A stretch of DNA of 64,000 nucleotides from Escherichia coli (lineage in GTDB: Bacteria > Pseudomonadota > Gammaproteobacteria > Enterobacterales > Enterobacteriaceae): NCBI RefSeq assembly GCF_024298765.1, contig NZ_CP101210.1. One strand, written 5' to 3'. The notes beneath the pieces are model-generated. The model did no database searches. It worked only from the letters and a program-made list of their open reading frames with translations, and was not told the origin of the DNA. Position numbers and translations under genes: made by a program. Of this stretch, positions 38,807 through 49,688 are shown piece by piece. Position 1 is the stretch's first letter. Each line of letters opens with the position of its first letter.

Positions 38807-41368
38807 TTACACCAGACTCTTCAAGCGATAAATCCACTCCAGCGCCTGACGCGGGGTGAGTGAATCTGGGTCGAGATTTTCCAGTGCTTCGACCGCAGGC
38901 GACGTTTCTTCTGGCACTGACAGCAAAGACATTTGCGTACCATCCACTTGCGTCGCGGCGGCGTTCGGCGAAATGCTTTCCAGCTCACGCAGTTTTTGCC
39001 GTGCGCGCTTAATAACCTCTTTTGGCACGCCGGCCAGAGCTGCAACCGCCAGGCCGTAGCTTTTGCTCGCTGCGCCATCCTGCACGCTGTGCATAAAGGC
39101 AATGGTGTCGCCGTGCTCCAGTGCATCGAGATGCACGTTGGCGACGCCTTCCATTTTCTCCGGTAACTGGGTCAGCTCGAAATAGTGGGTAGCAAACAAC
39201 GTCAACGCTTTAATCTTATTCGCCAGATTTTCCGCGCACGCCCACGCCAGCGACAGACCATCGTAAGTGGACGTTCCACGCCCAATCTCATCCATCAGCA
39301 CCAGACTGTACTCGGTGGCGTTATGTAAAATATTGGCGGTTTCGGTCATTTCCACCATAAAGGTTGAACGCCCGGATGCCAGATCATCCGCTGCCCCTAC
39401 GCGGGTAAAGATGCGATCGATAGGTCCAATCTCGACTTTTTGTGCCGGTACATAGCTGCCGATGTAGGCCATCAGCGCAATCAGTGCGGTCTGGCGCATA
39501 TAGGTACTTTTACCGCCCATATTCGGACCGGTAATGATCAACATGCGACGCTGCGGCGACAGGTTCAGCGGGTTGGCGATAAACGGCTCATTCAGCACCT
39601 GTTCAACCACCGGATGGCGGCCTTCGGTGATGCGAATACCCGGTTTATCAATAAAGGTCGGGCAGGTGTAGTTCAGCGTATAGGCCCGTTCCGCCAGGTT
39701 CACCAGCACGTCGAGTTCCGCCAGCGCGCTCGCGCTCTGTTGCAACGCTTCCAGATGCGGCAACAGCAGGTCGAACAACTCTTCATAAAGCTGTTTTTCC
39801 AGTGCCAGTGCTTTGCCTTTTGAAGTGAGAACTTTGTCTTCGTACTCTTTTAGCTCTGGAATAATGTAGCGCTCGGCGTTTTTCAGCGTCTGGCGACGCA
39901 TGTAATTGATGGGTGCCAGATGGCTTTGTCCACGGCTGATCTGAATGTAATAACCATGAACCGCGTTAAAGCCGACTTTCAGGGTGTCCAGGCCAGTACG
40001 TTCACGCTCGCGGACTTCCAGACGCTCCAGATAATCGGTCGCGCCGTCAGCCAGCGCGCGCCATTCATCCAGTTCTTCGTTATAACCAGTCGCAATAACA
40101 CCACCGTCGCGTACCAGCACCGGCGGCGTGTCGATGATTGCTCGCTCCAGCAGGTCGCGCAGTTCGGCAAACTCGCCCATCTTCTCACGCAGTGCTTGTA
40201 CCGGGGCGCTATCGACACCTTCCAGTTGCGCGCGCAGCTCCGGCAGTTGCTGGAAAGCGTGACGCATACGGGCCAGATCGCGTGGACGAGCAGTTCGTAA
40301 AGCCAGACGCGCCAGAATACGTTCCAGGTCGCCGACCTGACGCAGTACCGGCTGCAGCTCGGCGGTGAAATCCTGCAATGCGCCAATAGTTTGCTGGCGC
40401 TCAAGCAACACGCGGGTATCGCGCACTGGCATATGCAGCCAGCGTTTCAGCATACGACTACCCATCGGCGTTACAGTACAGTCGAGCACTGAAGCCAGCG
40501 TATTTTCCGCACCGCCGGCCAGGTTCTGAGTAATTTCCAGGTTACGACGCGTCGCGGCATCCATAATGATGCTGTCCTGCTGACGTTCCATAGTGATAGA
40601 ACGAATATGCGGCAGGGTCGTGCGTTGGGTATCTTTCGCATACTGCAACAGACAACCGGCAGCACAAAGTCCGCGTGGTGCGTTCTCCACACCAAAACCG
40701 ACCAGATCTCGGGTGCCAAATTGCAGGTTCAATTGCTGGCGAGCGGTGTCGATTTCAAACTCCCACAGCGGGCGACGACGCAGGCCGCGGCGACCTTCAA
40801 TCAGCGACATCTCGGCGAAATCTTCCGCATACAGTAATTCCGCTGGATTCGTACGTTGCAGTTCTGCCGCCATCGTTTCGCGGTCCGCCGGTTCGCTCAG
40901 GCGAAAACGCCCGGAGCTGATATCCAGCGTGGCGTAGCCGAACCCCTTGCTGTCCTGCCAGATAGCCGCCAGCAGGTTGTCCTGACGTTCCTGCAACAGC
41001 GCTTCATCGCTGATGGTGCCCGGCGTAACGATACGGACAACTTTGCGCTCGACCGGCCCTTTGCTGGTCGCCGGATCGCCAATCTGTTCACAAATAGCAA
41101 CCGATTCGCCCTGATTCACCAGTTTGGCGAGGTAGTTTTCCACCGCATGGTAGGGAATCCCCGCCATCGGGATCGGCTCTCCCGCCGAAGCACCGCGTTT
41201 GGTCAGTGAAATATCCAGCAGTTGCGATGCGCGTTTTGCGTCGTCATAAAACAGTTCATAAAAATCACCCATCCGGTAAAACAGCAGGATCTCGGGATGC
41301 TGGGCTTTCAGCTTGAGATACTGCTGCATCATGGGCGTATGGGCATCGAAATTTTCTATTGCACTCAT
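38807..41368 (-). CDS. mutS: DNA mismatch repair protein MutS
   Basis: 853-aa ORF recognised as MutS (Walker [10 protein letters not shown]). Confidence 0.97.
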
Positions 41369-41612
41369 GGGGTTATGTCCGGTTCCCTGATATTAAATGG
41401 GGTGTGATGGTTTTTATTTTCGTTGTAATCACATAAGGCGCACATGATACCGGAGTTAATCATTTCAGGGGAAGAAGCGAACGGCGAGTTCTTGATGGTG
41501 ATTCCGGGAAAGATGCTGTTTTGCAGCTTTTGCGTGATGACGATGAAACAAGATCGCAAAATTCGTCGGTTGAAGAAACCTCCTCCTTCAGAGACATAGT
41601 CCCCTTTAAAAT

Positions 41613-41635
41613 TAAGTTGTAATATAAATGCACCT
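41613..41635. promoter_or_regulatory. Candidate NsrR-type operator upstream of ygbA
   Basis: Half-sites AAGTTGTAATA / AAATGCACCTT separated by 1 nt; the second half (reverse complement AAGGTGCATTT) matches 10/11 of the NsrR half-site consensus as I recall it. ygbA is a known NsrR target in E. coli. Confidence 0.35.
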
Positions 41636-41653
41636 TAAGAGTATGGAGGCAGC

Positions 41654-41998
41654 ATGTCCGGCAAGCGTATCTCTCGTGAAAAACTGACGATTAAAAAAAT
41701 GATCGATCTTTATCAAGCGAAATGCCCGCAGGCGTCAGCGGAGCCGGAGCATTACGAGGCGTTGTTTGTTTACGCGCAAAAGCGGCTGGATAAATGTGTG
41801 TTCGGCGAAGAGAAACCAGCCTGTAAGCAGTGTCCGGTGCACTGTTACCAGCCTGCAAAGCGTGAAGAGATGAAACAGATTATGCGTTGGGCCGGGCCGA
41901 GAATGCTGTGGCGTCATCCGATCTTAACCGTGCGTCATCTCATCGATGACAAGCGTCCGGTGCCGGAGTTGCCAGAAAAATATCGTCCAAAGAAATAA
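41654..41998 (+). CDS. ygbA: nitrous oxide-stimulated promoter family protein YgbA
   Basis: 114-aa Cys-rich ORF in conserved position divergent from mutS. Confidence 0.8.
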   Translation: MSGKRISREKLTIKKMIDLYQAKCPQASAEPEHYEALFVYAQKRLDKCVFGEEKPACKQCPVHCYQPAKREEMKQIMRWAGPRMLWRHPILTVRHLIDDKRPVPELPEKYRPKK

Positions 41999-42036
41999 AT
42001 CTGCCGGAGAGCCATACTCTCCGGCAAATACGGCGC

Positions 42037-42465
42037 TTACGCTTTGGTGGCAATCAGGATGGCTGATGCTTTGATCAATGCAATAACGCGCGAGCCAGTG
42101 GTGAGTTTCATTTCATCCTGACTTTCATTTGTTACCACTGCCACAATTTCAAAACCCGCATCCGTTTTGATATGGACAGTGGCGTTCACTGCGCCTTCGG
42201 TGATTGTCGACACGCTGCCAGCAAACTGGTTGCGAGCAGAGAATTTCAGTCCACAGTCTTCCGTTGCCAGCGTGACCCACGGGGCTTTAATCAGGGCAAT
42301 CGCTTCTTTCCCTTTCGCCAGACCCAGCGCTTGCTGGCTGCTGTGAGTCACAATTGCCACCAGCTTTGCACCACCTGCCAGCGTCAGTTCTACTTCGTCA
42401 TTCACCGCGCCCATTGCTACTGCGCTAACTGTTCCGGTTAATTGATTTCTTGCTGAAACTGCCAT
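42037..42465 (-). CDS. tandem TOBE-domain molybdate/molybdenum-pterin-binding (Mop-like) protein
   Basis: Track ORF 42037..42504; likely start at 42465 (MAVSARNQLTG) after AAAGGAGG. Two repeats of the SARNQ...G.V...ALIKA TOBE/Mop pattern. Confidence 0.65.
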   Translation of the reverse strand: MAVSARNQLTGTVSAVAMGAVNDEVELTLAGGAKLVAIVTHSSQQALGLAKGKEAIALIKAPWVTLATEDCGLKFSARNQFAGSVSTITEGAVNATVHIKTDAGFEIVAVVTNESQDEMKLTTGSRVIALIKASAILIATKA

Positions 42466-42509
42466 ACTGCCTCCTTTCATTGAATGTTGATCGAGTATAA
42501 CCACATCTG

Positions 42510-48490: not shown

Positions 48491-48952
48491 ATGACTATTT
48501 GGGAAATAAGCGAGAAAGCCGATTACATCGCACAGCGGCATCGTCGCCTACAGGACCAGTGGCACATCTACTGCAATTCGCTGGTTCAGGGAATCACGTT
48601 ATCGAAAGCGCGCCTGCATCACGCCATGAGCTGCGCGCCGGACAAAGAACTCTGTTTCGTCCTTTTTGAACATTTTCGTATTTACGTCACCCTGGCGGAT
48701 GGCTTTAACAGCCACACCATCGAGTATTACGTCGAAACAAAAGATGGTGAAGACAAACAGCGGATTGCGCAGGCGCAACTGAGCATTGACGGCATGATTG
48801 ATGGCAAGGTCAACATCCGCGATCGCGAACAGGTTCTGGAACACTATCTCGAAAAAATCGCTGGCGTTTACGACAGCTTATACACCGCCATTGAAAACAA
48901 TGTGCCGGTGAATTTAAGCCAACTGGTAAAGGGACAAAGCCCGGCAGCATGA
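48491..48952 (+). CDS. hycA: formate hydrogenlyase regulatory protein HycA
   Basis: 153-aa ORF recognised as HycA. Confidence 0.9.
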   Translation: MTIWEISEKADYIAQRHRRLQDQWHIYCNSLVQGITLSKARLHHAMSCAPDKELCFVLFEHFRIYVTLADGFNSHTIEYYVETKDGEDKQRIAQAQLSIDGMIDGKVNIRDREQVLEHYLEKIAGVYDSLYTAIENNVPVNLSQLVKGQSPAA

Positions 48953-49076
48953 GCTGAGGCTTTGCCCGTTTTGCAGGCGTTACGCCTGTTTGGGGATGGG
49001 CGTGTCGATGAGTGTCGAAAATGACATTTCATCGGCATGTTTTCGTCAAAAATGACAATCACCTGAGGAATGCCTG

Positions 49077-49688
49077 GTGAATCGTTTTGTAATTGCTGAC
49101 TCCACGCTCTGTATCGGCTGCCACACCTGTGAGGCCGCCTGTTCAGAGACGCATCGCCAGCACGGCCTGCAATCAATGCCGCGCCTGCGAGTGATGCTCA
49201 ATGAAAAAGAATCTGCGCCGCAGCTCTGTCACCACTGTGAAGATGCGCCCTGTGCGGTGGTTTGCCCGGTTAACGCCATCACCCGCGTTGATGGGGCCGT
49301 GCAGTTGAATGAAAGTCTGTGCGTAAGCTGCAAACTGTGCGGCATCGCCTGCCCGTTTGGCGCAATTGAATTTTCCGGCAGCCGTCCGCTGGATATTCCG
49401 GCAAACGCCAATACCCCGAAAGCGCCACCGGCACCGCCTGCTCCGGCGCGTGTCAGCACATTGCTTGACTGGGTGCCAGGTATTCGCGCGATCGCCGTCA
49501 AATGTGACCTTTGTAGCTTTGATGAACAAGGTCCGGCCTGCGTGCGGATGTGCCCGACTAAAGCCCTGCATCTGGTGGATAACACCGATATCGCCCGCGT
49601 CAGCAAACGTAAGCGTGAGCTGACTTTTAACACGGATTTTGGCGATCTCACCTTGTTTCAGCAGGCTCAAAGTGGAGAGGCTAAATGA
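49077..49688 (+). CDS. hycB: formate hydrogenlyase iron-sulfur subunit HycB
   Basis: 203-aa ORF with four CxxCxxCxxxCP ferredoxin motifs. Confidence 0.9.
   Translation: MNRFVIADSTLCIGCHTCEAACSETHRQHGLQSMPRLRVMLNEKESAPQLCHHCEDAPCAVVCPVNAITRVDGAVQLNESLCVSCKLCGIACPFGAIEFSGSRPLDIPANANTPKAPPAPPAPARVSTLLDWVPGIRAIAVKCDLCSFDEQGPACVRMCPTKALHLVDNTDIARVSKRKRELTFNTDFGDLTLFQQAQSGEAK

Follow-up and report, generated by a model that had tools for sequence, protein, structure and literature searches.

NsrR is a dimeric transcription factor of the Rrf2 family which, as described in PMC4432287, PMC5411485 and PMC4861436, binds DNA tightly only when it carries its Fe-S cluster and loses this binding when the cluster is nitrosylated. 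The ygbA gene has long been recognised as a member of the NsrR nitrosative-stress regulon, and the NsrR operator in front of it is already published. In Escherichia coli K-12, ygbA was identified as an NsrR target (Bodenmiller and Spiro 2006, as cited in PMC5320621) and its promoter was found to be bound by NsrR in ChIP-chip (Partridge et al. 2009, as cited in PMC5320621), while in a Salmonella nsrR mutant the ygbA mRNA was raised 31.8-fold. For the strain CFT073, Mehta et al. (2015, PMC5320621 Table 4) predicted NsrR sites genome-wide and listed the ygbA site as AAGGTGCATTTATATTACAACTT, which passed the cut-off of their PatSer scan (ln(P) of -16.65 for a cut-off of -14.28). The same authors named ygbA among the NsrR-regulated genes with raised expression in CFT073 grown on nitrate, but their top-50 table has no entry under that name (PMC5320621). 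Mutagenesis of the repeat has been reported for ytfE, not for ygbA, and we did not find any footprinting or mutagenesis of the ygbA 23-mer in the literature covered, where Bodenmiller and Spiro (2006) and Partridge et al. (2009) enter through their citation in PMC5320621.

Here we describe the corresponding site in a 64-kb stretch of E. coli DNA (hereafter the window). An earlier note on this DNA had pointed out the resemblance of the site to an NsrR operator and had found its position consistent with nitric-oxide-responsive repression of ygbA. The first reading is upheld by the weight matrix, by identity to the published CFT073 site and by conservation across genera; the second agrees with the literature, namely the regulation and ChIP-chip data from K-12 and the derepression of ygbA in the Salmonella nsrR mutant. 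Our best overall explanation, to which we assign a probability of about 0.9, is that positions 41614-41636 form the operator through which NsrR controls ygbA, presumably by occluding the putative -10 and start region of its promoter.

The site and its genomic setting

The sequence AAGTTGTAATATAAATGCACCTT occurs a single time in the window, at 41614-41636, within the 285-bp intergenic region that separates the divergent genes mutS (38807-41368, minus strand) and ygbA (41654-41998, plus strand). The regulated gene encodes 114 amino acids that match the Pfam family YgbA_NO (PF11756, E = 1.1e-40), bears the name ygbA in annotated E. coli genomes, and is preceded by a Shine-Dalgarno sequence, GGAGG (41645-41649, plus strand), which was read from the sequence and belongs to a moderately conserved purine block. 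Seventeen bases lie between the 23-mer and the ygbA ATG, which places the site at -40 to -18, counted from the A of that codon. The earlier note had placed it at 41613-41635, which is one base too low, while the distance it gave from the ygbA start, about 20-40 bp, matches the observed 18-40 bp.

The operator is of the 11-1-11 type, AAGTTGTAATA-T-AAATGCACCTT, is assigned to neither strand in particular, and has two unequal halves. The strong right half (41626-41636, minus strand), whose reverse complement is AAGGTGCATTT, shares 10 of 11 positions with AAGATGCATTT, the half of the perfect ytfE palindrome, as had been noticed before for one half-site, and scores 14.5 bits with a half-site matrix. 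The weak left half (41614-41624, plus strand) shares 7 of 11 positions with the same sequence and scores 7.2 bits. Taken together, the two halves agree with the ytfE half at 17 of 22 positions, which is the maximum for the window, the runner-up having 15. The arms of the 23-mer are self-complementary at only 7 of 11 positions, and asymmetry of this order is frequent among published NsrR sites (PMC5320621). Since 550 frames in the window equal this degree of complementarity, dyad symmetry was dropped as evidence; it is the match to the NsrR matrix, and not the bare inverted-repeat character, that makes the site more than a chance occurrence.

Other features were observed around the site. Ahead of ygbA there is an ORF of 51 amino acids (41444-41599, plus strand), the counterpart of which is called a 'hypothetical protein' in RefSeq E. 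coli records. We considered it as a part of the ygbA unit and rejected it, as it has no Pfam match, is shifted in frame by a 1-bp indel relative to K-12 and lies in a region that lacks conservation beyond Escherichia; in all likelihood it does not represent a genuine gene. On the other side of ygbA, between this gene and fhlA, a 155 amino acid ORF (42037-42504, minus strand) encodes two TOBE domains of the molybdate-binding type (PF03459, E = 1.3e-34). K-12 lacks this ORF, which is found in 1892 of the 5426 complete E. coli genomes, CFT073 among them. A GC-rich hairpin with a 14-bp stem (41999-42029) directly follows the ygbA stop codon, and because its T-run is found on the minus strand only, it resembles a terminator for the convergent TOBE gene, which ygbA may share. 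Finally, the E. coli strain 21F61 (NZ_CP147038.1, 4052724-4054102), which is 100% identical to the segment, carries an IS200C-family insertion within the equivalent of 41369-42036, where the window has none.

Matrix match and conservation across enterobacterial genera

Leaving ygbA out, we derived a palindromic weight matrix from the remaining 25 distinct 23-mers in Table 4 of Mehta et al. (2015, PMC5320621). A scan of this kind had been suggested as a check on the site, and the ygbA 23-mer came out first among about 64,000 window positions with a score of 22.1 bits, which falls inside the 12.5-32.6 bits covered by the training sites. When the window was simulated 300 times with an order-1 Markov model, four matches reached 22.1 bits, or about 0.013 per window, and the expectation under independent, identically distributed bases was 0.0013 per 64 kb (0.06 with a background of 64% A+T). 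A chance match to the NsrR motif is excluded by this score together with the conservation described below.

The matrix also found a second match, AAATGACATTTCATCGGCATGTT, at 49019-49041 (16.9 bits), between hycA (48491-48952) and hycB (49077-49688). This sequence is identical to the 'hycB' site of CFT073, which is positive in ChIP-seq, and since it belonged to the training set its score is not an independent one.

We scanned for ygbA with one genome per species and obtained 80 loci, spread over at least 18 genera of enterobacteria (Escherichia, Citrobacter, Salmonella, Enterobacter, Klebsiella, Raoultella, Kluyvera, Lelliottia, Leclercia, Pluralibacter, Phytobacter, Trabulsiella and Rahnella, among others). 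The matrix was run over the 300 bp ahead of each gene, and in all 80 loci the best match falls 12-22 bp before the ATG, most often at 18 bp. These sites have a median score of 21.2 bits, compared with 2.0 for shuffled upstream regions. Because anchoring on the best match could inflate conservation, we also made a MAFFT alignment of the 90 bp preceding the ATG, independently of the matrix. The alignment (82 enterobacterial promoters) shows a conserved block, with 1.4-2.0 bits of information in most columns of 41614-41636 and close to zero at 41600-41611, as well as a small isolated block at 41597-41599. The ATGCA and CTT columns of the right half are nearly invariant across genera, and among Escherichia sequences variation inside the site is confined to positions 4, 16, 17 and 20, of which 4, 17 and 20 are degenerate in the matrix.

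These observations bear on the identity of the regulator. The dyad could in principle be bound by another protein, either a different Rrf2 factor such as IscR, or FNR, NarL or NarP acting on nitrate and nitrite signals, given that ygbA responds when cells grow anaerobically on nitrate and that FNR and the NarXL and NarQP systems are engaged under this condition too. The match is specific to the NsrR matrix, however, ygbA is derepressed in nsrR mutants, and the orthologue alignment contains no further conserved block in the 50 bp that precede the -35 region. The 23-mer does not appear to carry the FNR pattern, TTGAT-N4-ATCAA, or NarL heptamers. We therefore give hardly any credence to a regulator other than NsrR.

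A few orthologous upstream regions (L067, L076) have a degraded NsrR match at the conserved position (4.0 bits in the MAG UBA5654 and 11.5 bits in Escherichia sp. ESNIH1), with GCC or ACC in place of GCA, and NsrR control may be weakened in such promoters. One further locus came from a record titled 'Chryseobacterium sp. 18061' (L080, CACSKA010000005.1). It is an enterobacterial ygbA locus, encoding a protein that is 82% identical to that of E. coli, and its promoter is about the same as that of 'Citrobacter sp. 18056' from the same project (L058); the record is probably a mislabelled or contaminated assembly.

A putative promoter overlapping the operator

Part of the conservation in the 23-mer is not accounted for by the NsrR matrix. 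The AA at positions 1-2, the G at position 6, ATGCA at 15-19 and CTT at 21-23 are what the matrix demands, but positions 7, 11 and 12 are an invariant T, A and T where the matrix prefers C or T, T, and any base, respectively. We attribute these three bases to a putative sigma-70 -10 hexamer, TAATAT (41620-41625, plus strand), lying in the left half of the operator. Its T1, A2, A5 and T6 are 99-100% conserved across genera whereas positions 3-4 vary (TATTAT, TAATAT, TAGAAT, TAAAAT and others), and T-A-n-n-A-T is the conservation pattern typical of a sigma-70 -10 hexamer. With a 17-bp spacer, a weak candidate -35 hexamer, TAGTCC (41597-41602, plus strand; 3/6 to consensus), would coincide with the isolated Y-T/A-G block at 41597-41599, where the G is present in 93% of the sequences and the neighbouring columns are not conserved. 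Past the -10, a CA dinucleotide at 41631-41632 is conserved (C in 100% and A in 95% of the orthologues), and from the geometry of the -10 its A, at 41632 on the plus strand and seven nucleotides after the hexamer, is the predicted transcription start.

A consensus promoter scan of 41300-42100 called no promoter-like site, which we explain by the match of the -35 at only 3/6 and of the -10 at only 4/6 positions, and the ygbA promoter is thus assigned from comparative conservation only. No measured ygbA transcription start was found in a text search of the literature, in the Cappable-seq data (PMC4782308, part below 2.86 Mb) or in the supplements of Kim 2012, where b2732 figures in an orthologue table only. 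The putative ygbA promoter would consist of TAGTCC, TAATAT and a start near 41632.

Placed on this promoter, the operator would span about -18 to +5, a geometry that implies repression by occlusion. In the mechanism that we propose, a holo-NsrR dimer (NsrR being an Rrf2-family Fe-S repressor) would bind the 11-1-11 site through the near-consensus right half AAATGCACCTT and the weaker left half, which would double as the -10 TAATAT. With NsrR in place, RNA polymerase would have no access to the -10 and the start, and once nitric oxide had nitrosylated the cluster, NsrR would lose its affinity for DNA and ygbA would be transcribed. The weakness of the left half-site would follow from its having to serve as a -10 hexamer as well.

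This double use raises the question of how much of the block is read by NsrR. It could be that NsrR effectively reads the right half only (41626-41636), that the operator is functionally a single 11-bp site adjoining the core promoter, and that the left half is conserved purely as a -10. The gap between the two half-site scores points in this direction, as do T7, A11 and T12, which suit a -10 hexamer and not the NsrR matrix, and a weakly occupied single site would fit the missing ChIP-seq peak in CFT073. However, the AA at positions 1-2 and the G at position 6 of the left half are 99-100% conserved, match the matrix and have no role in a -10, and the full 23-mer passes the threshold of the palindromic matrix. 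The invariance of AA and G argues for a contribution of both halves, and although a site reduced to its right half is the most credible of the rival readings, we consider it unlikely.

Conversely, the conserved block could be the core promoter of ygbA and nothing more, its likeness to an NsrR site being coincidental and NsrR acting indirectly or elsewhere. The conservation of TAnnAT and of the CA at the expected start would be explained in this way, and so would the lack of a ChIP-seq peak in CFT073, but a promoter has no need of the NsrR-specific columns, AA-n3-G ahead of the -10 and ATGCAnCTT across the start. In addition, a score of 22.1 bits is expected only about 0.013 times per window, the orthologue upstream regions hold no other NsrR-like match once the site is removed (best scores with a median of 2.8 and a maximum of 13.0 bits), and the K-12 promoter was positive in the ChIP-chip study as cited in PMC5320621. 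A promoter without an operator is for these reasons very improbable, and we retain the reading in which NsrR binds both halves of the 23-mer over the putative -10 and start of ygbA.

Comparison with the CFT073, K-12 and ytfE operators

The site published for CFT073 is the exact reverse complement of the window 23-mer. In the CFT073 record, ygbA occupies 3137620-3137964 on the minus strand, so that the published coordinate, 3137982, corresponds to the lowest-numbered base in the 23-mer. The two sequences are identical from about 41559 to about 41700, that is from the promoter through the ygbA start, and the spacing between the ygbA site and the next listed site (hycB) is the same, 7405 bp. About 14 positions differ in the mutS-proximal part of the intergenic region, none of them inside the 23-mer.

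At the same position relative to the ATG, the K-12 ygbA promoter carries AAGATGTAATATAAATACATCTT, which scores 23.1 bits compared with 22.1 for the window; the comparison with K-12, which had been put forward as a second check, thus yields an orthologous site. Three bases set the K-12 sequence apart, at positions 4 (A to T), 17 (A to G) and 20 (T to C); the NsrR matrix tolerates each of these changes, and the TAATAT core is retained. Its dyad is more symmetric, with 9 of 11 positions compared with 7 of 11 in the window. Of 5426 complete E. coli genomes, 5418 carry the 60-bp promoter segment, 1086 of them in identical form.

We also observed that the mutS-ygbA intergenic region of the window has a mosaic relationship to these two strains. 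From 41369 to about 41497 it is identical to K-12 and has 8 differences from CFT073, while from about 41540 it resembles CFT073 (with full identity from about 41559) and departs from K-12, which suggests a recombination junction near 41500-41540.

The ChIP-seq study of CFT073 found no NsrR peak at ygbA, where the sequence is identical to that of the window, and its authors regarded this as a probable false negative (PMC5320621). Were the negative real, NsrR would be absent in vivo from the ygbA operator of the CFT073-type allele, another factor would read the same conserved dyad, and induction by nitric oxide or nitrate would pass through that factor under a control that is lineage-specific within E. 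coli, a scenario that we regard as highly improbable.

Beyond the correct annotation of the site, the importance of these results is small. What they may add, modestly, is a reason for the weak left half, which would be under the second constraint of an invariant TAnnAT -10 hexamer, and the operator and core promoter would together make up a single conserved footprint with sharp boundaries, present in no fewer than 18 genera of enterobacteria, a clear case in nature of a repressor site merged with a putative -10 element. The ytfE operator, AAGATGCATTT-A-AAATGCATCTT, is also of the 11-1-11 type, has 17 of 22 positions in common with the ygbA site and is one base apart from it in the right half. 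It is a perfect palindrome scoring 32.6 bits, in contrast to the ygbA site, whose left half is degenerate and contains the putative -10 hexamer. Such an overlap would offer a possible reason why occupancy by NsrR is harder to detect at ygbA than at ytfE or hcp.
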